DNA of 64,000 bases from a plasmid: sequence record NZ_KX443406.1; one strand, given 5' to 3'. Of the stretch, positions 12,007-53,761 are shown in pieces. The notes below the pieces were generated by a model, which had not been told where the DNA came from, searched no databases, and saw nothing but the letters and a program-made list of their open reading frames with translations. Both the position numbers and the translations under genes were made by a program. Positions within the stretch are counted from its first letter, which is position 1; the number at the start of each line of letters is the position of its first letter.

Positions 12007-12280
12007 GGGTGCGTTGCACCGTTGTACGCCTGCGGCGCACCCTGAAACGAGCTCCGCTGCGCTCCGCCCCTGGAAAAGACTTCTTCCTTTTTCCCTTCTG
12101 GCTTCCGATTTTGACCGGCGGTGACCTCCGCGCAACCCCTTGGCGCTGCGCGGCCTGACGGCTCCGAAAATTCTCTCCCCCGCTGCGCTCCTCCAAGATT
12201 TTTCGACCCCAGGGGTTGCACTCCGGCCCCCTCATACCGGTCCAAATACTCCATGCCAGAAGGGCAAAAGAACGGGCGGG
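12007..12280 (+). repeat. 274-bp direct repeat, copy A (~99% identical to 53487..53761)
   Basis: Hand alignment shows 3 mismatches over 274 bp. Contains internal inverted repeats (GGTGCGTTGCACC; GCAACCCCTTGG ... CCAGGGGTTGC) and pyrimidine-rich tracts. Lies immediately upstream of the DUF4192 gene. Confidence 0.9.
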
Positions 12281-12314
12281 CCACCGAGGTCCGTCCCAGA
12301 CCGGAGGGGGCGCC

Positions 12315-13304
12315 ATGACCACCAACCCGATTCGCATCAGCACTGCAACCGAGATCGTCACCGCAGTCCCCGCGCTGCTCGGCTTCATCCCGCAGCGGTC
12401 CGTCGTCGCGATCCTGCTCGACGGCGCGAAGGTTGTCTGCGCCATCCGAGTCGACGCGGGCATGGACCACCTCGCCACGCAGCTGCTCCCTGTCGCGGAG
12501 AAGCAGGCGGTCGACTCCATGATCCTGGTTTCGGTCGCCGACGCGCAGCACACCGATCAGTCGCTGGCGACCCTCGAGGCGATCCGTGCGACCCTGGCAA
12601 CCGCCGGAGTCGAGACGCGCCGAGCGCTCCACACGGCCGCAACCGAGCAGGGTGCCGAGTGGACGGACATCGAGACCGGCGAGAGCGGTGTAGTCGACAA
12701 CCCGAGCACGACGGCAGCGAACCTCAATCGCCTCATCGAGGGCCGGAGCTTCGTCGCGAGCCGCGAGGCGATCGAGGACATCTACGCGCCCACCGAGGTT
12801 GATCCGACCGCAGAAATCAACCGCGCACGTGCGATCGCTCGCATCCAGGGACGTGACTCCTTCGCCCGCACCACCATCACCGAGCTGGCCGCGCTGGTGA
12901 CGGATCGGCAGACACCGAGCGCCGAGCTGGCGGCCCGAGTGGGAGTGATGATGGCGGACGACGTCGAAGCGCGCGACATCGTTCTGGGGCTCGCTATCAA
13001 CGCCCCCATCGAGGCGCACGACGCGGTCGCGGCGATCGCTCGCCACCTGACAGGCATCGAGCGCGCCGAGGCGCTCACCGTCGCCGGATACTTCGCTTAC
13101 GTGGCGGGACGCGGACCCGACGCGGGCATCGCATTCGCCGCAGCCGAGAACGCCGCTGCGGCGGCCGGAGAGGTTCCGCCGCGACTGCTCGATCTGCTCA
13201 ACCGAGCGCTCAGCAGCGGCATGACCCCGGCCCAGATGCGGACCCTGGGAGACGCAGGGATCGAGGCCGGTCGCAAGCGCAGAGTGTCGCTCACCGCGAG
13301 CTAG
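12315..13304 (+). CDS. DUF4192-family protein
   Basis: ATG 12315 after GGAGGGGG SD. MTTNPIRISTATEIVTAVPALLGFIPQRSVVAILLDGAKVVCAIRVD is typical of actinobacterial plasmid/phage DUF4192 proteins. Confidence 0.6.
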   Translation: MTTNPIRISTATEIVTAVPALLGFIPQRSVVAILLDGAKVVCAIRVDAGMDHLATQLLPVAEKQAVDSMILVSVADAQHTDQSLATLEAIRATLATAGVETRRALHTAATEQGAEWTDIETGESGVVDNPSTTAANLNRLIEGRSFVASREAIEDIYAPTEVDPTAEINRARAIARIQGRDSFARTTITELAALVTDRQTPSAELAARVGVMMADDVEARDIVLGLAINAPIEAHDAVAAIARHLTGIERAEALTVAGYFAYVAGRGPDAGIAFAAAENAAAAAGEVPPRLLDLLNRALSSGMTPAQMRTLGDAGIEAGRKRRVSLTAS

Positions 13305-13318
13305 CCGCGAGTGACAGT

Positions 13319-13348
13319 AGGCCCCGGAGGTGGTTGCACCTCCGGGGC
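13319..13348. terminator. 13-bp perfect stem hairpin (GGCCCCGGAGGTG-GTTG-CACCTCCGGGGCC)
   Basis: Seen in sequence between convergent genes; a second 13-bp hairpin follows at 13382..13412. Confidence 0.6.
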
Positions 13349-13381
13349 CTACGCCGTTCGGTCGGTGCGTCACCGCAATCA

Positions 13382-13412
13382 GTTGTGTTCGGGCATCGAG
13401 CCCGAACACAAC
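13382..13412. terminator. 13-bp perfect stem hairpin (GTTGTGTTCGGGC-ATCGA-GCCCGAACACAAC)
   Basis: Seen in sequence; with the preceding hairpin it forms a bidirectional terminator pair between the DUF4192 (+) and HNH-operon (-) genes. Confidence 0.6.
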
Positions 13413-13450
13413 TTCGCGGCTGGCACGCAGCTCACCCAACGGGCGGCTCG

Positions 13451-13618
13451 CTACAGCAGGTCTTCCGCGCCGTCGGCGGGAAACGAGACGTCGACGCGAG
13501 GACCAGAGTCGTCCAGCGGCTCGCCGGCAACGACGCGACCAAGGTCGTCATCCGTCACACGAACCGTGTCCTTCGTCAACTGATACAAGGCCGCCTCCGC
13601 GGCCGACCGCTCACTCAT
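13451..13618 (-). CDS. small acidic hypothetical protein (55 aa)
   Basis: Internal ATG (M34 of the track ORF) has an excellent SD, GAGGGAGGAAGGGACGAC-ATG. It lies downstream of the HNH gene in the same orientation. Confidence 0.3.
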   Translation of the reverse strand: MSERSAAEAALYQLTKDTVRVTDDDLGRVVAGEPLDDSGPRVDVSFPADGAEDLL

Positions 13619-13634
13619 GTCGTCCCTTCCTCCC

Positions 13635-14177
13635 TCAGAACAGGATGCCTTGGTCTGGACCGGGATCAGTCTTCGCCCGGAGTAGTGCAACTTCGTCATA
13701 GCCGTCTCGGAGCGCATCGCGGATATCGAGCGACCGCTGATAGCGCGAGCGCCCCTGGCCGTCGAGAAAGGTGTGGCCTGACAGTCGGCCGAGCGCGATT
13801 GCGTATCTCACGTTCTCGCTGTGCGTCGACTTCACCAAGTGCGCGTGTCCCACCCGCACGCACAGCGGCTCGTTGCACTTGTGCTCGCACACGACACCAT
13901 CACCGAGCGGCCCGTGCACCAGTTCGACCGAGAAGCGATGCGCCAGCATCGTGCGCTGACGATTGTCTCGTTGGAAGTTGAACCGTCCGTACCCATCGGG
14001 CGCACTGATCGCTCCGACCCAGTACCAACACGTCGGCGACTTCACGACCTTCGACCAGAACGACGCGACGTTCTCAGCCGAGGGTTGAAGGGTGTTGTCG
14101 ACCACCCGGACGCGCGACGGACGCGCCGACGCCGGCGCATCGAAGTCGAAGCCGAAGAGCGGCTCGTCGTCGACCAC
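13635..14177 (-). CDS. HNH homing-type endonuclease
   Basis: Motifs FWSKVVKSPTCWYWVGAISAPDGYGRF and HRFSVELVHGPL..VCEHKCNEPLCVRVGHAHL are typical of HNH_3 / AP2-like HNH nucleases. Confidence 0.7.
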   Translation of the reverse strand: MVDDEPLFGFDFDAPASARPSRVRVVDNTLQPSAENVASFWSKVVKSPTCWYWVGAISAPDGYGRFNFQRDNRQRTMLAHRFSVELVHGPLGDGVVCEHKCNEPLCVRVGHAHLVKSTHSENVRYAIALGRLSGHTFLDGQGRSRYQRSLDIRDALRDGYDEVALLRAKTDPGPDQGILF

Positions 14178-14191
14178 CGCTCACAGATCCG

Positions 14192-14836
14192 TCACGACGC
14201 GACGGTTACTGGCTCAGACGCAGCACCACCGGACTCACTCTCTGCCGCCGCGGTCGATGACGGAACCTCAACGAGGCCGGCTGCAGCGAGGTCCTGCTTC
14301 GCCTGCTCCACAGTCTTCTTCGCCTCCCGCACGCTCACGCCGAGGACCGACGCCAACTCGGCCACTGATGCGTCCTTGGCGAACACCGCGATCGCACGGG
14401 CGTAGTCGAGCAGCAACGAGTCTTCCTGCGCCTGCTCCTCCGCAGTGAGGCTGCTGTCTGTCGATTCCGCTTCCTTCTTCGCGGCCTCGATCTTCGCCTC
14501 GTACTCCTGACGCAGCTTCTCAATCTTCTTGTCCCGCGCCTTCACCAACTGCTCGATCTTCCGCTCGGCAGCGGTCGAGCGTGACTCGACAACGGCATCC
14601 AGCTTCGCGAGTTGCGCGGCAACCTCATTGATCGGGCCAGCCAGCTTCTCGAGCTCGGACTGACGCGCCAGCAGACGCTCCCGCTCGCGGCGCAGGTTCT
14701 CGCGAACGTTCGGGGCGGAGTGCGGTCGGAGGGAGCGGCGTGCCGCCGCATTCGAAGACGTGGCCATAGGCCGCAGTGTATCGGCTCGCGCCGCTCGCGG
14801 GGGGTTCCGCACTTGGGAGCCGTGTCGCCTTGGCAT
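14192..14836 (-). CDS. coiled-coil hypothetical protein with C-terminal HTH-like segment
   Basis: Long charged heptad-like region (ERERLLARQSELEKLAGPINEVAAQLAKLDAVVESR...KIEKLRQEYEAKIEAAKKEAE) then VAELASVLGVSVREAKKTVEQAKQ. Start ambiguous (14836 or internal ATG 14767). Confidence 0.4.
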   Translation of the reverse strand: MPRRHGSQVRNPPRAARADTLRPMATSSNAAARRSLRPHSAPNVRENLRRERERLLARQSELEKLAGPINEVAAQLAKLDAVVESRSTAAERKIEQLVKARDKKIEKLRQEYEAKIEAAKKEAESTDSSLTAEEQAQEDSLLLDYARAIAVFAKDASVAELASVLGVSVREAKKTVEQAKQDLAAAGLVEVPSSTAAAESESGGAASEPVTVAS

Positions 14837-14904
14837 GTCACAGCTTTGGTCACCTTCTCGACGAAACCTCCCGTCAAATGCCTAACACACGCAGGCGCGC
14901 TGCT

Positions 14905-14959
14905 CTGACAGAACCGTCGAGGTTCTGTCAGACCCTGGTCTGACCTGCGGCCAGACCAG
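14905..14959. promoter_or_regulatory. candidate oriT / relaxase-gene control region: nested inverted repeats
   Basis: CTGACAGAACC-GTCGA-GGTTCTGTCAG (14905-14931, perfect 11-bp arms) overlaps GTCAGACC/GGTCTGAC and CTGGTCTG-ACCTGCGG-CCAGACCAG (14935-14959), ~60 bp upstream of the MobF relaxase start. A CATAAT -10-like hexamer sits at ~14995. Confidence 0.45.
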
Positions 14960-15014
14960 AAAACAACACACACCTCATGCACTAAAGTTGCGACCTGGCA
15001 TAATCGGCCCCGTG

Positions 15015-18000
15015 ATGACCGTCCACAAGCTCAGTGCTGGGGACGGCTACGTCTATCTCACGAAGCATGTTGCGGCCGGCGACGCGACCGAGTCCCGCAA
15101 GGCTGACGCGGTCGACTACTACGTCGCGAAGGGCACCCCACCGGGGATCTGGTGCGGAAAGCTCGCCGAGAAGGCCGGCGTGGAGGTCGGTACCGAAGTC
15201 ACCGAGGACGCAATGCGTTCGGTGTTCGGTGCGGCCCGCACCCCGAACGCCTTCGCCACCCGGCCCGGCAAGGGCTCGACGCTGGACGAGCGCCTCGACT
15301 GGTCCGAGAGCACTGCTCTCGGACGGGCGTTCTCCTGGTACGAGAACAGCCAGGAGTTCGTGAACGACGTCGAGGAGCGGTGCTCGGCGTACAAGGCCAC
15401 TTACGGCGAGTACCCGGATTCCGCTGCGCGGGCTGCGATCCAGCAGACCACCGCACGCAAGCACTTGCGGCGCGCCAAGGGTGACAAGGTCGACCTGATG
15501 AGCGACGAGGATGTCACCAAGTTCATCACCGAGCAGTACGCGAAGATGCGCCAACCGGTGGCCGGGTACGACCTGGTGTTCACGCCGGTGAAGTCGATCT
15601 GTCTGCTGTGGGGTCTCGGCGACGCCCAGGTGAAAGAGGCTGTCGAAGAGGCACATAAGCAGGCCGTCGACGAGGCCCTCGCCTGGATCGAGGACGAGGT
15701 GATCTACACCCGTCGCGGGGCCGGCGGCGCCCGCAAGGTCAAGGCCGAGGGGCTGCTGATCGCACGGTTCGACCACTTCGACAACCGTGTCGGTGATCCG
15801 AACCTGCACACCCATTCCGCGATCCTGAACCGGGTACTGGCAGAGGGAAAGTGGACGACGATCGACGGCCAGGTGCTCTATAAGGCGAACGTTGCTGCGT
15901 CGGAGCGCTACAACACGCGCGTCGCCGATCTGGTCGCGCGCAAGCTCGGCGTCACCTTCGCCCCGCGCCCCGATACCGCCGTCGGCAAGCAGCCGGTGTA
16001 CGAGGTCGAGGGCATCCCCGTCGGGCTGCTCGAGGAGTTCTCACGACGCGCCCAGATCGAGGATCGACAGGCCGAACTCGCACGCGAGTACAAGGACAAG
16101 TACGGCAAGAACCCGCCGAAGAAGGTGCAGTACGCGCAGGCGCAGCAGGCGACGCTGGACACCAGGAACGCGAAGAACCCGCCACGATCGTTGGCAGAGT
16201 TGCGCGCCGAGTGGCGCGAGCGTGCGTCCGCGATTCTCGCGGGCTCCGACCCCAGCACACTGGTCGACGAGGTGCAGTCCGGTCGCGATCGGCGCCCTGC
16301 GTTCTACGCCCCGCAGCTACCTGCTCTCGTGCAGGAAGTGACCGACGATCTTTCGCGCAAGGTCGGTTCGTGGACCGTATTCTCTCTGCAGGCCGAGATT
16401 CAGCGTCGGCTGCGAGAGTTCAGTTTCGCGGGCGAGATGGACGTCAACGAGTACGTCTCGGACGCGGTCGATCTCGCCGTCCGCGACTACTGCCTGCCCA
16501 CCTTCACAGAGGTCTACGACGCACCGGAGAGTGTCAGCGAACGCGTCGAGCGTGGGTTGCGACGAATGGTCGACGTCGATCGGGCAGAGATGCGATACAC
16601 CGCGCAGGCGGTGCTCGACGCCGAAGAGTTCATGCGTGACAACGCGGAGATCGACGACGAGCACACCGTCGCCGAACGCGTCATCCGCCGCCAGATCCGA
16701 CGAGCGGAGAAGAAGGCCGGACACACCCTCGGATCCGACCAGATCGCGATGATCGAGCACTTCCTCACTGCGAGGAAGAAGGTCGCCGTCGCTGTCGGTG
16801 CGGCGGGCGCCGGCAAGACCACCGCGGCGACAGTGATCGCCCGCGCATGGGAAGACATCAACGGAAAGGTGGTCGCTCTCGGGCCGTCGGCACGTGCCGC
16901 AGAAGTGCTCGGGGAGGAGATTTCCGTCGAAGGACGCACGATCGCGGATGTGCTCACCCGTGCCCGCGTCGGCATCCCGACCGGCATCGACAGAGGCGAT
17001 CTTCTGCTCGTCGACGAAGCCGGTATGGCCTCTGCTCGCGACCTCGCGGACCTCACCCGCATCGCGACCGAAGCAGGCGCAGTCGTCCGCCTGCTCGGTG
17101 ATCCCCAGCAGCTCGCCTCCGTCGAAGCTGGCGGCGTTCTGCGTGATCTGGCCGAGCGAACCGACGCCCCGTTCCTCGAACAGGTTCACCGGTTCAAGAC
17201 CGAGGGCGAAGCCGAAGCCAGCCTGCTTCTGCGTTCCGGAGCCGACAACGCCCTTGACTGGTACGAGCGCCGTGACCGCATCCGTGACGGAATGCGGCAC
17301 GAGCTGCCCGACATGGTTTTCGACGCGTACGTCGCCGACGTCGAGGCCGACAAGGTTGCCCTCATGGTCGCCCCGACGAACGACCTGGTCCGCGACCTCA
17401 ACATCAAGGCCGCCGCGTACTACCGCGCCAACGGCACCGTCACCGGACCCGGCGTCGTTCTCGCAGACGGCCTTGAGGCCGCCGTCGGCGACGTCGTCGT
17501 CACCCGCAAGAACAACAGCAAGTACGTCGTGAAGGACGCCGACGGACAACGGTCCGGGCGCGTGAAGAACGGTGACCTGTGGACCGTCTCCGAGATCGGT
17601 GAAGATGGTTCACTGCGCCTGCGGAACAACGTCTCCGACGGCGAGGTGACCGTCGCAGCCGACTACATCACCGACAACGTCCAACTCGGCTACGCAACGA
17701 CGGTGCACCGGTCGCAGGGCATGACCGTCGGTAGCTGTCACGTCCTCGCGGCCGCGAACATGGACCGCCAGTCGCTGTACGTCGCGATGACTCGCGGCAA
17801 GAACACGAACATCGTCTACGCCGCCAACGACGAGCTACCCGACTGGGACTTCGAGCATCGGCCGGACGAGCATCCGGCCGCGATCGACCTTCTCAACAAG
17901 ATCGTCGCCCGCGATGGTTCGCAGCGAACCGTGCACCAGATGATCGAGGACGAGCAGCGCCAAGCCGCGTCGTGGGACCGACTGCGCAGCACCCACAACC

Positions 18001-19283
18001 TCGCGGTCGGCGCGCTCTACGAGAATCTGACCGAGAGCCTTCTCGGCGAGATCCTCACCGAACGCCAGTTCTCGTGGGTCCACCAGCTCGGCGGCTGGGA
18101 CAAGATCGTCGAGATCGTCGCGCAGTCCGAAACCTTCGGCTGGGACACCCGCGCCTTGTTGTCGGATGCGGCCGCGGCGATGCGTGCTGCCGGAAAGGCG
18201 GGCGAGCTCGACAGCGAGCGTCGCGCTCCGGGCCGCGTGATGGCCGATGCCCTGCAGGCTGCGACGAGTCGGGAGAACAGCACCCCTCTCCCCCGCACTC
18301 GCACCGACGCGGTGGCCGGATACTCGGTGCCGGCCCTGAGCGAGGCTGCGGCCGAAACCGATCCGATCCTCGCCGCCTACGTCCAATCGCAGCAGCAGCA
18401 GATGCACGCGTTCGTCGACGCGTACACGACCGCGGCCATCGCCGAGAACGCCGGATGGGTGACGGCAATGGGCGACCCAGGGACGGACTCGCGGAAGATC
18501 GCGATGTGGGAGAAGGCGGTTCGCGAGGTCGCGCTCTCCCGCGTCAAGAACTCCGCGCCGGCCGACGAATCCGACCCCGTGGCGTACCTGACCGCGACGC
18601 GCGCCGAACAGATCACACGAGTGATCGACAGGGTGCAGTCCGCACCGGCTCGACGCTCCCCCTACGCCGATCACACCGCTGCCGAACTCGCGGCCGCGCG
18701 TGAATCGAGTAAGCGGCGGATCGGCGAGACCCGGACCCTCATCGCTCTGGCGAGGCAGGAGCTCGACCGCGCACAGGGCAAGGATTCAGGCACCGCGGCC
18801 GTCGATTCCACGGTCGCGGCCGTCGCGGCGGACGAGCAGAAGATCCACGCCGTGCGGCAGGCCCGGGAAGACCTGGAACTGCTGCGCCGCTCCGGTGTCG
18901 CCACTCGCGATCAGCTCGACAGCGCCGCCCGGGCGGTAGCGGCCGCAGAGGCAGCCGCGCCCCCGGAACGCCGTTGGCCCGTGATCGAGAGGTCCGCACA
19001 GTCGAATCGTGCGATCGCTGCGCAACGCGCCCGCGCCCACGTGACGGACGAGCGCGTCGTCGGAAAGCTCAACGACCGCATCGCCCGCTTGGAGACGTCG
19101 CTGGCGGCCGAGCGCGGGCACCTCAAGTCGATCGACACGGAGATCGAGCACCGTGACGGCTCCGGGACACCCGGCTCCGGGCGGCGCGACGCTCGCGGCA
19201 CGCAGCGACCCACAGGGCCGCCGATCGGGCGGGAAGAGGCTCCGCGCGTCGACCGCGATCACGGACCAGACCTGGATATGTGA
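15015..19283 (+). CDS. traA: MobF-family conjugative relaxase-helicase (TrwC/TraA-like)
   Basis: N-terminus MTVHKLSAGDGYVYLTKHVAAGD is TrwC-like. His-triad motif HFDNRVGDPNLHTHSAILN is present, and the C-terminal half carries Walker A AVGAAGAGKTT (RecD/TraA-like helicase). ATG 15015 is chosen over upstream ATG 14988. Confidence 0.85.
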   Translation: MTVHKLSAGDGYVYLTKHVAAGDATESRKADAVDYYVAKGTPPGIWCGKLAEKAGVEVGTEVTEDAMRSVFGAARTPNAFATRPGKGSTLDERLDWSESTALGRAFSWYENSQEFVNDVEERCSAYKATYGEYPDSAARAAIQQTTARKHLRRAKGDKVDLMSDEDVTKFITEQYAKMRQPVAGYDLVFTPVKSICLLWGLGDAQVKEAVEEAHKQAVDEALAWIEDEVIYTRRGAGGARKVKAEGLLIARFDHFDNRVGDPNLHTHSAILNRVLAEGKWTTIDGQVLYKANVAASERYNTRVADLVARKLGVTFAPRPDTAVGKQPVYEVEGIPVGLLEEFSRRAQIEDRQAELAREYKDKYGKNPPKKVQYAQAQQATLDTRNAKNPPRSLAELRAEWRERASAILAGSDPSTLVDEVQSGRDRRPAFYAPQLPALVQEVTDDLSRKVGSWTVFSLQAEIQRRLREFSFAGEMDVNEYVSDAVDLAVRDYCLPTFTEVYDAPESVSERVERGLRRMVDVDRAEMRYTAQAVLDAEEFMRDNAEIDDEHTVAERVIRRQIRRAEKKAGHTLGSDQIAMIEHFLTARKKVAVAVGAAGAGKTTAATVIARAWEDINGKVVALGPSARAAEVLGEEISVEGRTIADVLTRARVGIPTGIDRGDLLLVDEAGMASARDLADLTRIATEAGAVVRLLGDPQQLASVEAGGVLRDLAERTDAPFLEQVHRFKTEGEAEASLLLRSGADNALDWYERRDRIRDGMRHELPDMVFDAYVADVEADKVALMVAPTNDLVRDLNIKAAAYYRANGTVTGPGVVLADGLEAAVGDVVVTRKNNSKYVVKDADGQRSGRVKNGDLWTVSEIGEDGSLRLRNNVSDGEVTVAADYITDNVQLGYATTVHRSQGMTVGSCHVLAAANMDRQSLYVAMTRGKNTNIVYAANDELPDWDFEHRPDEHPAAIDLLNKIVARDGSQRTVHQMIEDEQRQAASWDRLRSTHNLAVGALYENLTESLLGEILTERQFSWVHQLGGWDKIVEIVAQSETFGWDTRALLSDAAAAMRAAGKAGELDSERRAPGRVMADALQAATSRENSTPLPRTRTDAVAGYSVPALSEAAAETDPILAAYVQSQQQQMHAFVDAYTTAAIAENAGWVTAMGDPGTDSRKIAMWEKAVREVALSRVKNSAPADESDPVAYLTATRAEQITRVIDRVQSAPARRSPYADHTAAELAAARESSKRRIGETRTLIALARQELDRAQGKDSGTAAVDSTVAAVAADEQKIHAVRQAREDLELLRRSGVATRDQLDSAARAVAAAEAAAPPERRWPVIERSAQSNRAIAAQRARAHVTDERVVGKLNDRIARLETSLAAERGHLKSIDTEIEHRDGSGTPGSGRRDARGTQRPTGPPIGREEAPRVDRDHGPDLDM

Positions 19284-30338: not shown

Positions 30339-31841
30339 CTAGCTGCTGAGGAACGACGGAATGGTGGAGTGGTCGGCGGGAATGACACCGATACCGAGCG
30401 AGGCCGCGAACGCGGCGGACTGCCAGCACCACGATCGGCGCACCGCGAGGCGGCTCTGCCGGGACAGGTCCTGGATCAGCGCGTCGATCTTCGGGACATC
30501 GGAGCTGCCAACCGGTTCGGTGACCGTGACCAGAACACCGAATCGGGTCACGCCGGCGCCACGGGCCTGCTCCATCCGGGCCTGTGCCGTGGAGGCGACG
30601 TCGATCTGGGCCTGGGCGGAGGCGATCCCCATCTGCTTCACCGAACCGCCGCTCGCGGCGGCGAGCGCGTTGCGGTAGTCGCTGTCGACGATCTGAGTGC
30701 CTTCTCCGGCCGAGTGCGGGCGGTAGACGATCGCTACGCGCTTGATCGGCACGGCGGAGTTCGGGGACAGCAACCGCTGCAGCACCGACTCGGTGACCGC
30801 GCCCTTGGGAGCCTCACGCATCTCCCACGTCGCGGAGACCGCGCCGTCGTGGAAGTACCGCCCCCCGTCGGAAGTCTCGTTGGCGGTACGGGGACCACAG
30901 TCCGCCCACTCGAGGCCGGTTCCCTCGCCGGAGTGCAGGCCACGTTCGATGTCGACGACCGACGCCGGGTCGTACGAGCGGCGCACGAACGCCATGATCT
31001 CGTCGGCATCCATCGGCGAGCATGGCGCACCGGCACGGGCGGCGGCCGCGGTCAGGCCGGGCAGCCGGCGACCGAGCTCGACGGCCTGCTCGGACGGGTC
31101 CTGTTTGCGCTCAGCTGTCTTGGCTTCGAATGTGAGCGCGATACGCGCAGTCAGGCGAAGCCCACCGGAGGTCAATCCGGTGGCGAGCTGGTAGTTCGAG
31201 TCCCGGGCCAGCTGCGGAGCATCGGGAAGGGTGTTCTGGTGAATCGTCTCGTACAGCTCGATGCCCGTCTCGGGGAGGGTTTCGAGGACCGTCACCACAC
31301 CGAGGACGTCGGACGTCTCGCCCGCTCCGTTGAGGAACTGCGCCCAGTTCCCGACGTACTGGTCGATCACTTCCTGGTCGACGGTCTCCGCGCCCTGGGG
31401 GAACGCGTCGAGCACGATCGTGTAGGCGTCCTTGCTCGGCATGTGGATCATTCCGAAGCTGCGGCCGTCCGAGTCGATGCCCTCGTACAGCTCGGTATCC
31501 GCGAGGACGCCGGGCAGCCGGTACTTGCGGCCCGGGATGCGGGAGAACGTGCCGGAGGAGTAGACGTGTTCGCCGCGCCGGCCCGCACGCCAGAACTGGA
31601 ATCTCATGAGTGCCCTTTCGTAGCCGGAGCGGCCGTCACGCGAGTTGATGAGGGGGATGAAGGCGAGCGCCAGGGGGACGGCGATCACGAAGGCCACCCC
31701 GAAACCGAAGAAGAGACCGATCAAGAAGACAACCGCAGCGGCACCGATGCCGAGCATCGTCGTGCCGAACGTCGCGCCCATCAGTCCGGTATCGCGGGGC
31801 CGACGCCACGCCCCGTAGGTGTGGTACTCCTGCTCCTTCAT
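30339..31841 (-). CDS. conjugation-associated membrane protein (N-terminal TM hairpin + large C-terminal domain)
   Basis: Hydrophobic hairpin LGIGAAAVVFLIGLFFGFGVAFVIAVPLALAFIPL, then a ~400-aa soluble domain. Overlaps the VirB6-like gene stop (ATGA). Confidence 0.45.
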   Translation of the reverse strand: MKEQEYHTYGAWRRPRDTGLMGATFGTTMLGIGAAAVVFLIGLFFGFGVAFVIAVPLALAFIPLINSRDGRSGYERALMRFQFWRAGRRGEHVYSSGTFSRIPGRKYRLPGVLADTELYEGIDSDGRSFGMIHMPSKDAYTIVLDAFPQGAETVDQEVIDQYVGNWAQFLNGAGETSDVLGVVTVLETLPETGIELYETIHQNTLPDAPQLARDSNYQLATGLTSGGLRLTARIALTFEAKTAERKQDPSEQAVELGRRLPGLTAAAARAGAPCSPMDADEIMAFVRRSYDPASVVDIERGLHSGEGTGLEWADCGPRTANETSDGGRYFHDGAVSATWEMREAPKGAVTESVLQRLLSPNSAVPIKRVAIVYRPHSAGEGTQIVDSDYRNALAAASGGSVKQMGIASAQAQIDVASTAQARMEQARGAGVTRFGVLVTVTEPVGSSDVPKIDALIQDLSRQSRLAVRRSWCWQSAAFAASLGIGVIPADHSTIPSFLSS

Positions 31842-47249: not shown

Positions 47250-47496
47250 GTGCGAGTCCGCAGGACTCACTGGCTGAATCGGGGGGGATTCAAACTGCCG
47301 CCCGCAGTCTACCGTCACCACCCGACAAGACCGAGGCGCGTGACCAAGATCGCCAACCCGATGCCACGCGTTCGAACGACAGTGCTGCCGCGGCACCGCT
47401 ACGCGCCGCCTTGCCATCTATCACTCCCTGGTCACCAGAGCGCGGAGGCCGCGACGGCGCAGTGCCGGCGGGTAGAGTCACCTCGATCAATCCGCT

Positions 47497-47537
47497 GGGG
47501 CAGCCAGGCCCAAGCACGAACCCGGAAGGGAACTTTC
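47497..47537. promoter_or_regulatory. diverged copy of conserved leader cassette (GGGGCAGCCAGGCCCAAGC ... CCCGGAAGGGAACTTTC-ATG)
   Basis: Aligns to the GGGCATCAGGCCCAGC + CCCGGGAAGGG cassettes at 48007, 51251 and 56616. TAGAGT -10-like hexamer at 47473. Confidence 0.4.
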
Positions 47538-47909
47538 ATGGCCGACACGGACCGCCGCTCCGGCGCAGAACTGCGCGCTCGACGGGAGCTGCTCGGCCTC
47601 AACGCGCAGGAGACCGCCGCACTACTCGGTGTCGACGAACGCGTGATCCGAAGATGGGAACAAGGCAAGCCCATCCCCGAAGGAGTCGTCGCCGAACTCG
47701 CGCAACTCGAACAGGTCCAGGACGACGTGATCCGGGAACTCGAAGACGCCGGCAAAGACAGTGGCGTCATCACCACCTACAAGGGCGACGGCGTCGTACC
47801 CGACCGCCCCGAACTGCCTGCCCGCTGGCACCGCGTCGCGGCCGCAACCGCGGTCCGCAACCTCGCAGCCGAGGGAGTCGACACCCGAATCATCTACGCC
47901 GAAAGCTGA
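47538..47909 (+). CDS. XRE-type HTH regulator (123 aa)
   Basis: ATG 47538. LRARRELLGLNAQETAALLGVDERVIRRWEQGK. The long track ORF from 46650 is an off-frame extension. Confidence 0.6.
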   Translation: MADTDRRSGAELRARRELLGLNAQETAALLGVDERVIRRWEQGKPIPEGVVAELAQLEQVQDDVIRELEDAGKDSGVITTYKGDGVVPDRPELPARWHRVAAATAVRNLAAEGVDTRIIYAES

Positions 47910-47953
47910 CTACCAGGCGATACGTGCGGATCCGGTCCGTTCTGGCATTGTGC

Positions 47954-48050
47954 CGTTACAACGATTGAACGGCTAAACGTTGTAACGTAGAATGGTTGTA
48001 GCGAGCAGGGCATCAGGCCCAGCTCACGATCCCCGGGAAGGGGACTCCTC
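47954..48050. promoter_or_regulatory. leader cassette copy 1: inverted repeat CGTTACAACG-14nt-CGTTGTAACG, TAGAAT -10, 17-nt motif AGGGCATCAGGCCCAGC (48007-48023), SD CCCGGGAAGGGG
   Basis: All elements read directly. The 17-nt motif is identical in three copies and contains the hairpin GGGC-AUCA-GCCC. Confidence 0.6.
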
Positions 48051-48242
48051 ATGCACGACTATGTCGTGGCGATCAGCCATCGCGACGGTGACCACGTCGG
48101 CTCCGTCAAAGTCTCAGCAGCGTCAGCGCCCGATGCGGCGGACGCCGGAATCTTGACCATGCTCGACGGGCGGCCGTTGCCGTCGAGCGACTACCGGGCG
48201 ATCGCCGTTCCGCTGCGCCAGCTCGCACCGGCCTCCCACTGA
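48051..48242 (+). CDS. small hypothetical protein (63 aa)
   Basis: GC3-rich ORF immediately after leader cassette copy 1. Confidence 0.5.
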   Translation: MHDYVVAISHRDGDHVGSVKVSAASAPDAADAGILTMLDGRPLPSSDYRAIAVPLRQLAPASH

Positions 48243-48319
48243 CCTTCGGATCGGCGGGGCGCCCGACGGCAAGCCCCGCCGATCCCTCTCCTTGACCAGC
48301 CCTGGAAAGGGACACGGCA

Positions 48320-49318
48320 ATGAATCTTGCAATCGAATCATCCGGCACCCCAACGGACGAGCTGTTCAACAACCTCTCGAACATCCTCAGCACCGTCGCG
48401 TGGGCCGGCATGGCTCTCGGGGTCATCATCATGGTCGTCAGCATGGGTCGGTTGGCTTTCGCCTACGACTCCTACGCCTGGTCCAGTGCCCTTCGCGGAA
48501 TCATCGGGGGAGTGGGAGCCATCGTCGGCTTCGGACTCGCCGCACTACTCGGTGCGGCCGGCTCCGCCTCCGACGCTCCCGCCGAGCCAGCAGAATCAGA
48601 ACCGTCCCCGGCTCCGCAGCCGGTTCCGATCCCGACCCCGGCCCCTGATCCGACCCCGACTGACGTCGGCGACTCCACCCCCGCTGGTTTCGACATCAAT
48701 CCCATGATCCTGCTCGCTGCCTTCGGCGCGATCGGGTTCGTCGTCGTCACCTGGTTCGCCGTGTCCAACTTGCGAGCCCGCCGCGCCGAGCGCCGCGAGG
48801 AGCGAGAAGCCCGCGAGCGCGACTGGGCGACCGGTCAGGCCGTGTACAAGGGCGTCCTCGACGACTACAGCGCCTATCTGCTCGATCCCTTCGCGTGGCT
48901 CCAACGGCCCATCCTCGAAGACGTCGACGAGCCGCTGACGGCCGCGTTCCTCGAAGCGCTCGCCCACGCCCAGGCGCTCGACCTCGACGTCGTCCCCGCC
49001 GACCAGAACCGAATCGACCAGTTCCGCACCGCGGCCCACGAACTCCGGGCAGCCTGGGACAAGGCCGACGAGAACGCCCGCCGCATCGGCACCAGCATCT
49101 ACGAGCGGTCCAGCCGCAACAAGCTCCGCAAGGCCGCCTACGCGCTCCGCACCGCACTCGACACCTCCGCCACCGCAGCAGAGCGTCAAGCCGCCACCGA
49201 GACCGTCAAGCGACTGACAGACGGCCTGGTCAAAGCGCCCGAACGCGTCCTCAGTGCCGTCACCGCGGCCATCGACACAGCACGTCGCAAGGAACTCCCT
49301 GTCGGACTCAACCAGTAG
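48320..49318 (+). CDS. membrane protein with Pro-rich linker and cytoplasmic coiled-coil domain
   Basis: Two TM segments separated by the PAEPAESEPSPAPQPVPIPTPAPDPTPTD linker; the C-terminal 200 aa are helical and charged. Confidence 0.5.
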   Translation: MNLAIESSGTPTDELFNNLSNILSTVAWAGMALGVIIMVVSMGRLAFAYDSYAWSSALRGIIGGVGAIVGFGLAALLGAAGSASDAPAEPAESEPSPAPQPVPIPTPAPDPTPTDVGDSTPAGFDINPMILLAAFGAIGFVVVTWFAVSNLRARRAERREEREARERDWATGQAVYKGVLDDYSAYLLDPFAWLQRPILEDVDEPLTAAFLEALAHAQALDLDVVPADQNRIDQFRTAAHELRAAWDKADENARRIGTSIYERSSRNKLRKAAYALRTALDTSATAAERQAATETVKRLTDGLVKAPERVLSAVTAAIDTARRKELPVGLNQ

Positions 49319-49357
49319 CTTGTAGACCGAGCCCCCACCAGACGCAGAACGGACTCC

Positions 49358-49669
49358 ATGGATCAGATGAACGCATTCACATGGATCGGCCTCGCCCTCC
49401 TCATCGTCGGCGGCGGCATCGTGATCTGGGTGTCGCCGATGGTGCTCGCCCTACAAGCCAAGGGGCTTCCCGGAGGGAAGTACCGCACCCGGCACGGCAT
49501 CGGGCTCGGGCTCGCCGCATTTGGCGCCATCCTGATGAACATCGGCACGCTGAGCTCGAGCGCCGGCGTCGCGATGAAGATCGCCGCCCTCGCGGCCGCA
49601 GTGATCCTGCTGGGAACACTGGTATGGGCCACTGTGCGGATGCGCGACCAGAGCGGAGCAGCTGAGTAA
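49358..49669 (+). CDS. small membrane protein (103 aa, 3 TM)
   Basis: Hydrophobic ORF with GC3 bias. Confidence 0.45.
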   Translation: MDQMNAFTWIGLALLIVGGGIVIWVSPMVLALQAKGLPGGKYRTRHGIGLGLAAFGAILMNIGTLSSSAGVAMKIAALAAAVILLGTLVWATVRMRDQSGAAE

Positions 49670-49734
49670 CCACCGGGACCGACAAGAAGGCGGGGCACAT
49701 GCCCCGCCTTCTTTGTGTCTATATGGCTCCCGAT

Positions 49735-50310
49735 CTACTCCGGTGCGGGCGGCGGGGGCCCGATCACGGGGGGAGGGGGAGCCTTCGGCAGCGGCGGCAG
49801 CGGTTTGCCTCCCAGATATTCCAGGGCGTTTCGAACCAGTCCGGGTTCGGCCTCTGCGACGACGCGGCGGCGCTCCTTGATTCGCCGCCAGGTGCGTATG
49901 CGTCCGATCCTTGGGTGCCAGACCACGCTTTGAAGGTCCCACGCGGCCTCGCGCGATAACCGGGTTAGCTCCGGACCAATTTTGCCTGCGTCGTAGTCGA
50001 GAGGTTGATCTTCCGCATCTTGCAGGCTCTTCCACCACGCTACATATGCGAGCAGTTTGTAGTGCTCGACAACGTTTCTCGGGGTTGCGGCAACGATCGC
50101 CGCCTTCTCCAACTCAGCGATCGCCTGCTGAAAGGGCGGGGCGTCCGGGAGGTCGCTGGGGCCGGCCCACCGAGCGGCCTCGCAGTCGGCCAATCGACGC
50201 AGGACCTCGCTGCGCACCTGCCGTCGCCCTTGGGCGCCGATCAAATACTGACCGACGAATGACCCGATACCGAGCGCGCCAAGGATGGATGCGAAAGCGG
50301 AGAGGTCCAC
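49735..50310 (-). CDS. hypothetical protein with N-terminal TM and Pro-rich C-terminus
   Basis: ORF on minus strand with GC3 bias; ends PLPPLPKAPPPPVIGPPPPAPE. Confidence 0.4.
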   Translation of the reverse strand: MDLSAFASILGALGIGSFVGQYLIGAQGRRQVRSEVLRRLADCEAARWAGPSDLPDAPPFQQAIAELEKAAIVAATPRNVVEHYKLLAYVAWWKSLQDAEDQPLDYDAGKIGPELTRLSREAAWDLQSVVWHPRIGRIRTWRRIKERRRVVAEAEPGLVRNALEYLGGKPLPPLPKAPPPPVIGPPPPAPE

Positions 50311-50408
50311 CAGCGCAGACTAGCCCGCGCCGCGGCACAACTAGTGTCCTCGAGATGACGACAGGTCGAGATGAAGGATCACGCTCGAAGTGGACGCGCG
50401 GTACTCGA

Positions 50409-51005
50409 ATGTGGGGGGCCGCGACTGTCTTCGCGGTACTCGTCCTTTGGGGAGGCACGCAGCTGGCCATTGCACGGGGGCAAGATGTGGCCTGGTACAC
50501 GGGATTCGGCCAGTGGCTCGGTGCGCTGGGTAGCCTGATCGCAGCCGCCGTAGCGTTGGGAATCGCCACCACGGACCGGCGCCAGGCCGCGAAGCTGCGG
50601 ACGGCTGAGCAAGACGACCGCGACGCAGACCTAGCCCGCGAAGCAGGGCTGGTACGGATTCAAATCGAACACGTGCAGGATGGTGTTCCGCCGATGCCCG
50701 TGAAGGCCATCACCGTGAGGAACTGGAGGCAGTCCCGACTGTTCGAAGTGGAACTGGTGAGGATCGCGGTGACCAGCGCGCAAACGAAGGCTGAGATCGG
50801 AAGTGTCCGGATGCACTTCCCCAACGGTCGGAGCTGGGGGGTAAACAAGCATGACGTGAAGCTGACACCGATCGACCACGGGATGACTTTGTGGGTCTTC
50901 CCAATGAACGGTGCTGTGCCGAAATACGGGGCGCTCCAATACACCGATGAAGCCGGGCGGCGGTGGGAGGTCGACACCAAGGGGATCATCGCGCGGAAGC
51001 TGTAG
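50409..51005 (+). CDS. hypothetical membrane-anchored protein
   Basis: ATG 50409 (MWGAATVFAVLVLWGG...); two N-terminal TM helices then a beta-rich domain. Confidence 0.4.
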   Translation: MWGAATVFAVLVLWGGTQLAIARGQDVAWYTGFGQWLGALGSLIAAAVALGIATTDRRQAAKLRTAEQDDRDADLAREAGLVRIQIEHVQDGVPPMPVKAITVRNWRQSRLFEVELVRIAVTSAQTKAEIGSVRMHFPNGRSWGVNKHDVKLTPIDHGMTLWVFPMNGAVPKYGALQYTDEAGRRWEVDTKGIIARKL

Positions 51006-51194
51006 GGACTGAGGTTCCTGCCCCGCCGGGTCGTCATTATCGCGGCGGCTCGTCGCTGCGTACCCCTGGCCCGCTCCGCTCTACCAGGGGCAATGCCTAC
51101 CTGCGGCAGGTACTGCACTCCTCGTCCACCGCACCATTCGTCTCTTGCCGGCGGGGCCGGGGAACGGTTGAAACAACACCGAAAAACAGGCCGC

Positions 51195-51291
51195 CATCAG
51201 GCATTACGTATTGCAAACAGCTATATTGTTGGATAGAATGAGAGGGCGGTAGGGCATCAGGCCCAGCCGCCGACACCCGGGAGGGAAACTC
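51195..51291. promoter_or_regulatory. leader cassette copy 2: TAGAAT -10 (51234-51239), motif AGGGCATCAGGCCCAGC (51251-51267), SD CCCGGGAGGGAAA
   Basis: Read directly; same spacing as copy 1. Confidence 0.6.
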
Positions 51292-51585
51292 ATGGACACC
51301 GATCTGATCGAGCAGACCGTCATCGTCACCGCAACCATCGCCCAGGAGGCGGACGGCCACACCAACACGGTCGACCTCGAGGCGCACCTGGACGGCGCAG
51401 GCTGCGTCCTCCCGCCCGTCTGGGCGCAGAGTCTCGTTGCCGCGCAGGCCGACCCGGGGGAGTGGAGCACTGACATCGCCGACCGGGTCCTCGCGGGCCA
51501 CGGATACCGCCGCACCGACGAGTGGCTCGATGACGACAGCGGATGCTGGACCGCGACCGTCGAGCACATCGCCAGCGCATCCTGA
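51292..51585 (+). CDS. small acidic hypothetical protein (97 aa)
   Basis: GC3-rich ORF directly downstream of leader cassette copy 2. Confidence 0.5.
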   Translation: MDTDLIEQTVIVTATIAQEADGHTNTVDLEAHLDGAGCVLPPVWAQSLVAAQADPGEWSTDIADRVLAGHGYRRTDEWLDDDSGCWTATVEHIASAS

Positions 51586-51658
51586 CACCATCGGATACCG
51601 GCAGCAGTTGGGCCGGGCCACTGGGTTCCGGCCCAACGCATACGAGGGGGAGAGCCAC

Positions 51659-52228
51659 ATGCAGGACGTCGAGCACGACGAGACGAACGCGTTCGTCGAC
51701 GAGCCGACCGACGACCCGGGCAGCGAGTACACCGAGCCCGAACTCGACCCCAAGGCTCACATGCTCTGCGCCGCCGTGTGGACCCGAGACGACACCACCT
51801 TGAGGTTCGTCGTCGAGCGGATGACCGAGGCCGACTTCGCGAACCCCTTCCACCGCCCTGTTTTCGCGGCGATCCGGGATGCGGTGCTGGCCGGCCACCC
51901 GCACGACCCGGCTAGCGTCAGCATGGCGCTCGGTCGCGCAGGCAGCCAGGCCGTACCGGCCGCCGTCCACAACCACTTCCGCGCGGCGCTCACCCTGGGG
52001 TCGTCCGCGGGCGCGCTGCGCTACTACGCCGCTGACGTCGTCGCTGTTGCGTACCGACGGAGCTTCCATGAGCTGGCGGCCACGATGGCGCACGCGGCAG
52101 CCGGGGCCGCGGAAGATCAACTGTTCCCGATCCTGGTCGACCTGGGCACCCGGCAGCGCAGCGAGATGAATCGACTCCGGTCCCTCCGCGACGACCCACT
52201 GCCCACGACGGCGACCGACCAGGCGTGA
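51659..52228 (+). CDS. DnaB-helicase N-terminal-domain protein (stand-alone)
   Basis: ATG 51659 after GAGGGGGAG SD. AHMLCAAVWTRDDTTLRFVVERMTEADFANPFHRPVFAAIRDAV ... RYYAADVVAVAYRRSFHELAA matches the DnaB N-terminal domain pattern; no ATPase domain follows. Confidence 0.5.
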   Translation: MQDVEHDETNAFVDEPTDDPGSEYTEPELDPKAHMLCAAVWTRDDTTLRFVVERMTEADFANPFHRPVFAAIRDAVLAGHPHDPASVSMALGRAGSQAVPAAVHNHFRAALTLGSSAGALRYYAADVVAVAYRRSFHELAATMAHAAAGAAEDQLFPILVDLGTRQRSEMNRLRSLRDDPLPTTATDQA

Positions 52229-52274
52229 CGCGGGGTCCAGGCTGCAATATTCCCGTTCGCAATAGGATGGGCGC

Positions 52275-52859
52275 ATGATGATCGGATACGCGCGGGCCGA
52301 GGAAGGCCACGACGAGGACCAGCAACGCTCGTCGCTCGTCGCGCTGGGAGTCCAGCCCGATCACATCCATATCGACCGCGGTCTACGCGGGACCAGGAAC
52401 GACCTGCCCGCCCGCACGGCCATGCTCGCACGCCTCACCGCCGGCGACGTCATCGCGGTCACCGGACTCGAGCGACTGGCCCGCTCCGCTGCCGAGCTGG
52501 GCGAAGTCGCTGGCGTGATCGAGCAGCGCGGCGCATCACTTCGCGTCGGATCGACCGTTTACGACCCGGACACCGAGACCGGCCGCACCGCGTTCGCCAT
52601 GCTCACCCAGACCTTCCCCGACTTCCAAGCCGGAATCTTCCAACTTCGGCTGTCCGGGCCGCGCGCGAAAGCCAAAGCTGCAGGACGGTATCCGGGCGGC
52701 AAGGCGAAGCTCACACCAGAGCAGAGCCGTGCAATGTTCGAGCAGTACCAGTCCGGCGAGAAGACAGTCGCCGACCTGCAGAAGGAACACGGGCTGAGCA
52801 AGTCCGGTGTGTACGTGTACCTGCGGCAGGAACGCGACGCCCGCAACAACACTGCCTAG
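52275..52859 (+). CDS. serine-recombinase (resolvase/invertase) homologue lacking the catalytic serine; C-terminal HTH
   Basis: MMIGYARAEEGHDEDQQ replaces IGYARVSTxxQ. Otherwise clear resolvase similarity (DVIAVTGLERLARS ; GIFQLRLSGPRAKAKAAGRYPGGKAKL) and an HTH (TVADLQKEHGLSKSGVYVYLR). Confidence 0.6.
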   Translation: MMIGYARAEEGHDEDQQRSSLVALGVQPDHIHIDRGLRGTRNDLPARTAMLARLTAGDVIAVTGLERLARSAAELGEVAGVIEQRGASLRVGSTVYDPDTETGRTAFAMLTQTFPDFQAGIFQLRLSGPRAKAKAAGRYPGGKAKLTPEQSRAMFEQYQSGEKTVADLQKEHGLSKSGVYVYLRQERDARNNTA

Positions 52860-53042
52860 ACCACGCAATCGGAATTGCCCTCGCTCCTGCCGATACCTGT
52901 TCGGGCCGCACCTCGACTGAGCCGGAGATTGCCGCTGGGTATCAAAGGAGACGAACGTGCCCTACCCCCAGTGGGTGGTGGCGGACGATGGACTCGCCCC
53001 CGACGCAAACCCAGGCAGAGCACGCCCACTGAGGAGGCTGCG

Positions 53043-53126
53043 ATGTTCGATCTTCCGTTCTGGGGGCCGCTCACGCCCGTGGTGATCGCAGTGGCCAACG
53101 CGCTCGACTGGCTGGGGGTGTGGTGA
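53043..53126 (+). CDS. tiny Trp-rich hydrophobic peptide (27 aa), first of four tandem
   Basis: MFDLPFWGPLTPVVIAVANALDWLGVW. Stop overlaps the next ATG (TGATG). Confidence 0.3.
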   Translation: MFDLPFWGPLTPVVIAVANALDWLGVW

Positions 53127-53212
53127 TGGCACCGCTCGGCGGCGTCCTCGTCCCGGAGTGGCTGTACGACGTGCTCTACCAACTCTGGCTATGGGGCATT
53201 CCGCCGCACTAG
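53126..53212 (+). CDS. tiny Trp-rich peptide (28 aa)
   Basis: MAPLGGVLVPEWLYDVLYQLWLWGIPPH; translationally coupled to the preceding peptide; AGGAGAG SD follows for the next. Confidence 0.3.
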   Translation: MAPLGGVLVPEWLYDVLYQLWLWGIPPH

Positions 53213-53226
53213 CAGGAGAGAAGCTC

Positions 53227-53331
53227 ATGGGTGACACGTTCTGGTTTCTGCCGTTGCCATTCGAGACGCTCCGATGGCTGGCTGCGACGTACCCATGCCT
53301 GGTCGACTTCCGCCAGGCGTGTGGGCGATAA
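53227..53331 (+). CDS. tiny Trp/Phe-rich peptide (34 aa)
   Basis: MGDTFWFLPLPFETLRWLAATYPCLVDFRQACGR after AGGAGAGAAGCTC-ATG. Confidence 0.3.
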   Translation: MGDTFWFLPLPFETLRWLAATYPCLVDFRQACGR

Positions 53332-53341
53332 GGAGACGGTC

Positions 53342-53449
53342 ATGCTCGACTACGGATTCTTCGGCCGCACCCTCGGCCCTCTCGGCGAGGCGATGGACAT
53401 TGTCATCTACTGGATCGCCACAGGCGTGCGGCTGATGCCGCACGCATAG
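53342..53449 (+). CDS. tiny hydrophobic peptide (35 aa)
   Basis: MLDYGFFGRTLGPLGEAMDIVIYWIATGVRLMPHA after AAGGAGACGGTC-ATG. Confidence 0.3.
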   Translation: MLDYGFFGRTLGPLGEAMDIVIYWIATGVRLMPHA

Positions 53450-53486
53450 CGCGCGAATCACCGAGGCCCTTCTCGACAATTTCCCC

Positions 53487-53761
53487 GGGGTGCGTTGCAC
53501 CGTTGTGCGCCTGTGGCGCACCCCGAAACGAGCTCCGCTGCGCTCCGCCCCTGGAAAAGACTTCTTCCTTTTTCCCTTCTGGCTTCCGATTTTGACCGGC
53601 GGTGACCTCCGCGCAACCCCTTGGCGCTGCGCGGCCTGACGGCTCCGAAAATTCTCTCCCCCGCTGCGCTCCTCCAAGATTTTTCGACCCCAGGGGTTGC
53701 ACTCCGGCCCCCTCATACCGGTCCAAATACTCCATGCCAGAAGGGCAAAAGAACGGGCGGG
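53487..53761 (+). repeat. 274-bp direct repeat, copy B
   Basis: See copy A (12007..12280); 3 mismatches. Confidence 0.9.

Follow-up and report, generated by a model that had tools for sequence, protein, structure and literature searches.

To our knowledge, single-stranded DNA (ssDNA) promoters have been demonstrated in only a few enterobacterial plasmids, and large surveys have detected them chiefly through homology to the F plasmid. The sso elements (ssoA, ssoU, ssoT and ssoW) are orientation-dependent imperfect palindromes of 150-300 nt that are active only as ssDNA and in which RNA polymerase reads promoter-like features of the stem. Frpo1 and Frpo2 of F are experimentally validated ssDNA promoters (PMC9849209), and Frpo was first reported by Masai and Arai in 1997 as a primer-RNA promoter, as cited in PMC11541004. 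The present analysis concerns a pair of 276-nt direct repeats in a plasmid sequence of 64,000 nt (record NZ_KX443406.1; the whole stretch is hereafter called the window), which by the annotation of pVAPA1037 and pVAPA1357 is a Prescottella (Rhodococcus) equi virulence plasmid of the pVAP type. These repeats probably belong to a new family of Frpo-like ssDNA promoter or priming hairpins, not homologous to those known, in the leading regions of conjugative plasmids of Mycobacteriales. On balance, we also favour a function in which the hairpins drive zygotic expression of establishment and anti-defence genes. The family is apparently undescribed; no description of such elements in Actinobacteria was found in the literature searched, although earlier papers on R. 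equi plasmids might mention the repeat.

As with Frpo1 and Frpo2 of F and ssi of ColIb-P9, the elements are non-coding units of 200-330 nt found as near-identical direct repeats (PMC9849209, PMC11541004). Also shared are a long imperfect hairpin on the template strand, which is the transferred (T) strand in Frpo and ssi, that is more stable than its complement and in the new family is supported by covariation, a distance of about 35-50 nt between the hairpin base and the first start codon, a location in a gene string that runs in one direction, that of the relaxase or tra genes, and downstream domain families in common (ParB-family, DUF932, SSB and anti-restriction). The F plasmid was analysed as a control. 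Its Frpo1 and Frpo2 are direct repeats 5.39 kb apart and 90-95% identical; the T strand of Frpo2 forms a hairpin of about 320 nt (z = -5.9) with its base about 47 nt from the ssb start; and the T strand of both is about 9 kcal/mol more stable than its complement, which agrees in sign and size with the difference in the actinobacterial family. Downstream of Frpo1 and Frpo2 lie genes for SSB, a ParB-family protein and a DUF932 protein, and all leading-region genes of F are co-oriented with traM/J/Y, the geometry seen at the actinobacterial loci. The relation is one of analogy and not of descent, because blastn gave no match to the element in 5,426 complete E. coli genomes and their plasmids. By BLASTP, the P. 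equi ParB-like protein and the DUF932 protein of pELW1-1 (Mycobacterium sp. ELW1) resemble their F counterparts only at the domain level.

Several properties set the new elements apart. Unlike Frpo, they have high-GC Mycobacteriales as hosts, a shorter core (about 185 nt) and an activity that is predicted; instead of the canonical TTGACA/TATAAT they contain cANAAT, whose -11 A is unpaired, behind a spacer of constant length (16 nt); they bear GNA mini-hairpin motifs; and nearly each gene of a string can have its own cassette (at least 11 in pELW1-1, from two families). They resemble sso elements as orientation-dependent imperfect palindromes with promoter-like stem features. However, sso elements occur once per small rolling-circle plasmid and serve as primers only, whereas the new elements occur in many copies, each tied to a gene start, on relaxase-bearing plasmids of 60-220 kb. 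The open-promoter mimics 6S RNA and Ms1 RNA likewise have a long hairpin with a central bubble and a promoter-like shape. This is a resemblance of design only, since those are stable RNAs that sequester polymerase, whereas the present element matches nothing in Rfam and would, by prediction, function as DNA and as a productive template.

A repeat search of the window placed copy 1 at 12005-12280 and copy 2 at 53486-53761, with 99% identity and three mismatches (12026/53507, A/G; 12033/53514, C/T; 12043/53524, T/C), all of them in the first 40 nt. The first-pass annotation of the window had reported near-identical direct repeats with three differences, and both the pair and its location were borne out, its limits being only 1-2 nt short at the 5' end. 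The 276-nt pair is not a chance occurrence, as the window holds only one other repeat family, which is far shorter. The flanks of the two copies are unrelated on either side, with no duplication common to both. Each copy lies just 5' of a plus-strand start, as had been noticed, and is assigned to the plus strand by the orientation of the downstream gene, the predicted folding strand being minus. Copy 1 separates a Fic-family gene (stop at 11996) from a DUF4192 gene (12315-13304, plus strand; PF13830, E = 1e-39), whose ATG at 12315 is 34 nt from the end of the repeat. Copy 2 is followed after 32 nt by a 27-codon open reading frame (ORF) with a Shine-Dalgarno sequence (53794-53877, plus strand; read from the sequence) and then by a gene for a 516-aa protein with a ParB N-terminal domain (53960-55510, plus strand), assigned from the RefSeq annotation of an identical gene and from the occurrence of ParB_N in eight homologous contexts.

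The unit recurs well beyond this plasmid. Searched by blastn against 72,556 plasmids, a check that the first-pass annotation had proposed, it proved to be a recurrent, structured and orientation-specific element present at 228 places in 127 plasmid records from Rhodococcus, Prescottella, Nocardia, Mycolicibacterium and Mycobacterium. A pattern taken from the most conserved block located 72 additional stretches in contigs of species-representative genomes, and Williamsia copies also belong to the family. A profile built from the first matches gave more than 100 matches, often with two to four co-oriented copies per 8 kb at a spacing of 1.2-2 kb. Among the matches listed, no overlap with annotated features was seen, apart from three rows labelled 'hypothetical protein'. 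Searches of 50,697 phage records, of complete E. coli genomes and of Rfam gave nothing similar. An assembly artefact, which had been considered at the outset, is contradicted by the presence of at least two places in 24 of 25 P. equi plasmid records, the exception being the 51.7-kb deletion derivative pVAPA_U19; almost all pVAPA and pVAPB plasmids sequenced thus have both copies. The portion conserved across the family spans nt ~82-276 in the numbering of the P. equi unit; the ~80 nt before it differ between lineages, and the 5' part is absent from the Mycobacterium and Williamsia copies.

The position of the element relative to genes is strongly constrained. A Shine-Dalgarno sequence and a same-strand start codon follow 9-54 nt 3' of the element in 101 of 106 copies, with a mode of 34-41 nt. 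Pfam analysis of 85 downstream ORFs identified DUF4192 (11), ArdC-N (9), ParB_N (8), DUF932 (7) and IrrE/M78 (7), and the same gene strings also contain SSB, Fic/VbhA, Lsr2, NrdH and DnaB-N-like genes. The downstream genes thus fit the establishment and anti-defence class found behind Frpo and ssi promoters. In all eight loci that contain a relaxase gene (MOBF or MOBP), every one of the 18 elements is upstream of that gene and co-oriented with it. The family is found with differing plasmid backbones and relaxase types.

The conserved core of the unit is an imperfect hairpin of about 185 nt, identified by folding and covariation, at 12087-12270 of copy 1 and 53568-53751 of copy 2 (minus strand). 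Its stems in copy 1 are S1 (12087-12102/12255-12270), S2 (12107-12118/12237-12248), S2b (GGTGACC/GGCCCCC), S3 (12130-12144/12210-12223) and an apical S4, and the gene-proximal arm alone carries a 5-nt bulge, TCATA (12232-12236, plus strand), which reads TCATG in most relatives. The first-pass annotation had cited two inverted repeats in the unit, GGTGC-GTT-GCACC (12010-12022) and GCAACCCCTTGG (12133-12144) with CCAGGGGTTGC (12210-12220). Both are present, but the arms of the second are 65 nt apart, not about 50, and belong to this much longer hairpin. Structure tests used an alignment of 53 copies less than 95% identical to one another. RNAalifold on MAFFT and hidden Markov model (HMM) alignments gave only 6-13 pairs, the apical part being gappy, so a structure of 58 pairs in five stems was written by hand and its pairs were then counted against the alignment. 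Standard pairs filled 80.8% of the cells, compared with 70.7% in column shuffles, and none of 500 shuffles reached the observed level; sliding the partners by 1-3 columns gave at most 51%. Both sides had changed in 43 of the 58 pairs, with compensatory examples such as AT 29 / GC 19, CG 22 / GC 14 and GC 27 / CG 18. The covariation check that had been suggested therefore supports the hairpin, and covariation along its length shows that it is under selection as a single-stranded structure.

Four lines of evidence (wobble pairs, folding energy, GNA motifs and a promoter-like motif confined to one arm) indicate that the strand that folds is the minus strand, complementary to the genes. In plus-strand notation the 58-pair structure contains 185 A.C cells, which are G.T on the minus strand, against 71 G.T cells. 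A.C was favoured in 32 pair columns and G.T in 13 (sign test, p = 0.007), and 41 of the 53 sequences had more A.C. An earlier count on HMM match columns gave a weaker asymmetry, 100 against 61. When folded as DNA, the minus strand had the lower energy in all 53 cores (mean -53.1 versus -44.7 kcal/mol), and composition-controlled z-scores were -4.9 for minus and -4.0 for plus. The sequence d(GCGNAGC) is a GNA-triloop sequence that forms unusually stable DNA mini-hairpins. The 53 cores contain it 96 times on the minus strand and not once on the plus strand, the N being C in 62 instances, G in 17, A in 15 and T in 2. The conserved 'CGCTGCGCTC' blocks, three per unit, are d(GCGNAGC) when read on the minus strand. 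By motif count, the minus strand of copy 1 has two d(GCGCAGC) motifs in the apical part (12145-12151 and 12182-12188) and three more overlapping motifs at 12051-12067.

These asymmetries bear on the earlier proposal of a structured RNA leader or protein-binding site, in which the conserved structure was upheld. All four strand tests point to folding of the mRNA-complementary strand, and therefore against a sense RNA leader and for a single-stranded DNA form. A sense-strand leader would place the hairpin in a 5' untranslated region or intercistronic mRNA, where it might stabilise the message, direct its processing, regulate translation or bring about processive antitermination as happens in Gram-positive conjugative elements. 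Such a leader would suit an orientation-specific element that ends 9-54 nt 5' of a start codon, the plus strand as RNA also folds stably (z = -3.2), and covariation by itself does not separate RNA from ssDNA. However, a sense RNA helix would tolerate G.U and not A.C, the reverse of the 185 to 71 excess observed; the plus strand is the less stable in all 53 cores, and the GNA-triloop motifs are exclusively on the opposite strand. No conserved promoter precedes the element, whose 5' part is missing in the Mycobacterium and Williamsia copies, and no Rfam match was obtained even at E <= 1. We therefore regard an RNA leader as unlikely.

The fourth line of evidence is a promoter-like motif on the 3' arm of the minus-strand hairpin. 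It consists of a -35-like hexamer, TTGCGC (12130-12135, minus strand; 53611-53616 in copy 2), and, 16 nt away, a -10-like hexamer, CAAAAT (12108-12113, minus strand; 53589-53594 in copy 2), with the family consensus cANAAT. Across the 53 copies the -35-like positions are conserved as T49 T45 G48 C42 G48 C45, the A at -11 and the T at -7 are each present in 51, the spacer is 16 nt in 46, and the -11 A is opposite a mismatch in 51. After the -10-like hexamer comes an internal loop of 6x7 nt, the place at which transcription would begin. Conservation is poor at the mirror positions of the other arm, and there the conserved 5-nt bulge lengthens the spacing to 19-20 nt, so that the double-stranded plus strand has no properly spaced promoter. 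When the hairpin is formed, the motif is directed outward through its base, towards the gene that follows; in duplex DNA its direction is reversed.

We infer the transferred strand, the promoter activity and the zygotic induction, and together they would operate as follows. The relaxase would nick oriT, presumed to lie just 5' of traA, and the minus strand, which is the template of the downstream genes and the predicted transferred strand by analogy with F, R388 and RP4, would enter the recipient 5' to 3'. In each cassette the gene body would come in first and the hairpin after it. Once folded, the hairpin would recreate a duplex promoter, with TTGCGC-16 nt-cANAAT on its 3' arm, the -11 A left unpaired and the expected start placed in a 6x7-nt bubble. 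Host RNA polymerase would start there and transcribe outward from the hairpin base along the single-stranded template, giving sense mRNA for DUF4192 from copy 1 and for the small ORF and the ParB-like gene from copy 2. The same RNA may additionally prime complementary-strand synthesis. When the plasmid becomes double-stranded, the hairpin would be lost, the motif would face away from the gene and expression would end.

A number of points weigh against a promoter function of this kind. The motif fits only 7-8 of 12 consensus positions and has no T at -12, and a consensus promoter scan of both strands found nothing. The wobble counts of 185 and 71 are not phylogenetically independent, and shuffled sequences had mean energies of -35.3 and -31.1 kcal/mol for minus and plus, so the folding-energy asymmetry is partly compositional. 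The T-strand assignment is by analogy with F, R388 and RP4. Copy 2 would be about 41 kb from the presumed oriT, with the vap island and a 9-kb helicase gene between them, which is far for a 'leading' gene. Of the 127 plasmids with the element, 22 are typed as non-mobilizable. Finally, transcription from ssDNA is not known from experiments in any actinobacterium.

The minus-strand hairpin evidence would serve equally for a signal of the ssi or sso type devoted to priming, at which RNA polymerase or primase is recruited for complementary- or lagging-strand synthesis and the proximity to genes is incidental. Multiple copies per leading region would fit multiple priming events, and Frpo itself was originally described as a primer-RNA promoter. 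Yet priming requires neither the tight spacing to a Shine-Dalgarno sequence and start codon (101 of 106 copies) nor the confinement to the 5' side of particular gene families, and the ssoA signature CS-6 (TAGCGT) and its complement are absent from the unit. Priming alone is accordingly an improbable account of the element, and it overlaps the ssDNA promoter reading without excluding it.

Much less probable is a double-stranded operator or centromere-like site for a plasmid protein, such as the adjacent ParB-like protein or a global repressor, that co-regulates operons, the hairpin being a by-product of palindromic sites. The site does recur before several operons, a ParB-domain gene is often adjacent, and repeated operators are a feature of global plasmid regulons such as that of KorB. 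Duplex binding, however, leaves unexplained the compensatory changes over about 58 pairs and 185 nt with asymmetric bulges, strand asymmetries are meaningless for duplex DNA, and the family spans different backbones and relaxase types. It is also very doubtful that the repeats are recombination or mobile elements (module boundaries, insertions resembling miniature inverted-repeat transposable elements or repetitive extragenic palindromes, or substrates for excising the 41-kb transfer region): direct repeats 99% identical and 41.5 kb apart make homologous recombination physically possible, a worry already voiced about Frpo1/2 of F. Against such a role, 101 of 106 copies keep a fixed orientation and start-codon distance to the gene that follows, members of the family occur only in gene strings of the plasmid type 5' of relaxase genes, the P. 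equi flanks have no common duplication, the copies are old, diverged and covarying, unlike copies from recent transposition, the one deletion derivative that the database contains ends elsewhere, and no single-copy product of 39 or 41 kb occurs among the 25 P. equi records.

The arrangement of the circular plasmid also accounts for the apparent position of the repeats. The circle runs from copy 2 through the ParB-like gene, Lsr2, the vap island, the 9-kb helicase gene, Fic, copy 1 and DUF4192, and then through three minus-strand genes, traA, the type IV secretion system (T4SS) genes (minus strand) and the partition and replication genes back to copy 2. The MOBF relaxase gene traA/mobF (14988-19283, plus strand) has the same orientation as both repeats and begins 2.7 kb 3' of copy 1. 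Both copies are thus part of a single plus-strand gene string that extends from the ParB-like gene to DUF4192 and ends at the relaxase gene. The repeats had been described as bracketing a transfer and partition region and as possible module boundaries; this 'bracketing' is a consequence of the circular map and not a functional boundary.

The 99% identity of the P. equi pair is a separate and secondary fact beside the function of the element. Paralogous cores are 100% identical in P. equi and 98% identical in pRDE02, compared with 73-84% in pRECF1, 74% in a Nocardia plasmid and 71% in pELW1-1, and some copies from different genera are closer than copies within a plasmid (for instance, 82% identity between one copy of pRECF1 and one from Nocardia). 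It follows that the family is old and that homogenisation of the P. equi pair was recent, in line with the recent duplication or gene conversion proposed in the first-pass annotation; to judge from the sequences, either gene conversion took place recently or one copy replaced the other. Recombination between the P. equi copies is possible in principle, as has likewise been raised for Frpo1 and Frpo2 of F (PMC9849209). No evidence of repeat-mediated deletion was found among the 25 P. equi records, and the suggestion of repeat-mediated excision finds no support in pVAPA_U19, the sole natural deletion derivative in the database. This plasmid of 51.7 kb has one copy of the repeat and has lost copy 1, DUF4192, traA and part of the T4SS cluster. 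Its deletion extends from inside the large helicase/methyltransferase gene to inside the T4SS cluster, and a repeat-mediated origin was rejected because these endpoints are not in the repeats. Eight pVAPA records show three places for the unit. NZ_KX443389.1, for example, ends with a full copy (30545-30818 in the coordinates of the excerpt analysed) and begins with nt 73-276 of the unit (1-204). A third copy was rejected in these records, which are about 200 bp longer than pVAPA1037 and probably retain an untrimmed circularisation overlap.

A second family with similar properties is present in pELW1-1. Eight more intergenic gaps of this plasmid (ends at 25520, 27060, 28412, 29607, 30258, 31630, 32788 and 34129 in the coordinates of the excerpt analysed) contain an unrelated repeat of about 300 nt whose copies are 76-98% identical, and which runs through the unidirectional string that also holds the first family, as far as the gap 5' of mobF. 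It forms a long hairpin (z = -4.3) that ends about 25-30 nt before start codons, its minus (template) strand is 15-21 kcal/mol more stable, and the corresponding arm carries a TTGA(G/C)C-19 nt-NANNCT motif. With the two families together, pELW1-1 has 11 or more cassettes, so that nearly every gene of the string can have one.

The first part of the P. equi unit forms a separate hairpin, GGGTGCGTTGCA...TGCGGCGCACCC (12006-12044 in copy 1 and 53487-53525 in copy 2; strand not assigned). In copy 1 it begins 10 nt past the Fic stop codon, and it contains all three differences between the copies. Its sequence is specific to P. equi, other plasmids having a different small hairpin in its place, and it probably serves the gene 5' of it as a terminator or insulator. 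A reading of this hairpin as oriT (GGTGC-GTT-GCACC followed by GTTGTAC, similar to IR2/nic of R388) was dropped, as it is P. equi-specific and not conserved in the family; the presence of the family beside MOBP as well as MOBF relaxases also speaks against it. A pair of neighbouring hairpins, perfect or nearly so (TCTGACAGAACC/GGTTCTGTCAGA and CTGGTCTGACC/GGCCAGACCAG), are located at 14904-14959 (strand not assigned) in the 250-bp gap 5' of traA. On the minus strand they are followed by TGCGTGTGTTAGGC, loosely reminiscent of MOBF nic regions, and they are a candidate for a putative oriT or an operator.

A 50-nt repeat, GCAGGGCATCAGGCCCAGC...GGGAAGGG, is found in three copies (47996-48045, 51240-51289 and 56605-56654), each directly 5' of a plus-strand start codon, and two of the three have canonical TTG...N17...TAGAAT promoters in front. 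It resembles a conserved module, made up of a 5' leader and a ribosome-binding site, that goes with ordinary double-stranded promoters; unlike it, the 276-bp repeats do not have canonical promoters in front. Positions 4583-24589 of pVAPA1357, which correspond to the window from about 57000 onwards, where GC drops, contain the vap pathogenicity island within the plus-strand leading-type gene string, between the ParB-like and Lsr2 genes and the large helicase gene. The island would reach the recipient relatively early if the strand assignment is right.

Copies of the element were also seen on Streptomyces and Kitasatospora contigs, and on short contigs of metagenome bins labelled Planctomycetaceae, Pseudoxanthomonas, Rhizobiaceae, Pseudaminobacter, Verrucomicrobiota and Thermoanaerobaculia. 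Several of these copies score the same as Rhodococcus copies, which suggests mis-binned or contaminating plasmid contigs and not a wider host range. In pKNR of R. opacus B4 a gene for a sigma factor of the sigma-70 family (16719-17984 in the coordinates of the excerpt analysed) stands in a leading-type string, two genes 5' of a copy of the element, and this plasmid-borne sigma factor could affect which polymerase holoenzyme reads the hairpins.

In its most general form, the proposal is that conjugative plasmids of Mycobacteriales, including the R. equi virulence plasmid, have their own non-homologous families of ssDNA promoters with a pre-opened -10 region and GNA mini-hairpins, which give nearly every leading-region gene (ArdC, ParB-like, DUF932, DUF4192 and others) a private promoter that fires only during entry; we put the chances of this at about even. 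If true, zygotic induction would be extended from enterobacterial plasmids to Actinobacteria, and DUF4192 together with the many small ORFs of no known function behind the cassettes would become candidate establishment and anti-defence genes. A family in high-GC Gram-positives that is structurally analogous to Frpo and yet unrelated to it would mean that the strategy is a general one and arose more than once. It would also offer a sequence handle for leading regions, and hence for oriT polarity and early anti-defence genes, on plasmids of Rhodococcus, Nocardia and Mycobacterium. The prediction for R. equi is that transfer of the virulence plasmid coincides with expression of its ParB-like and DUF4192 genes.

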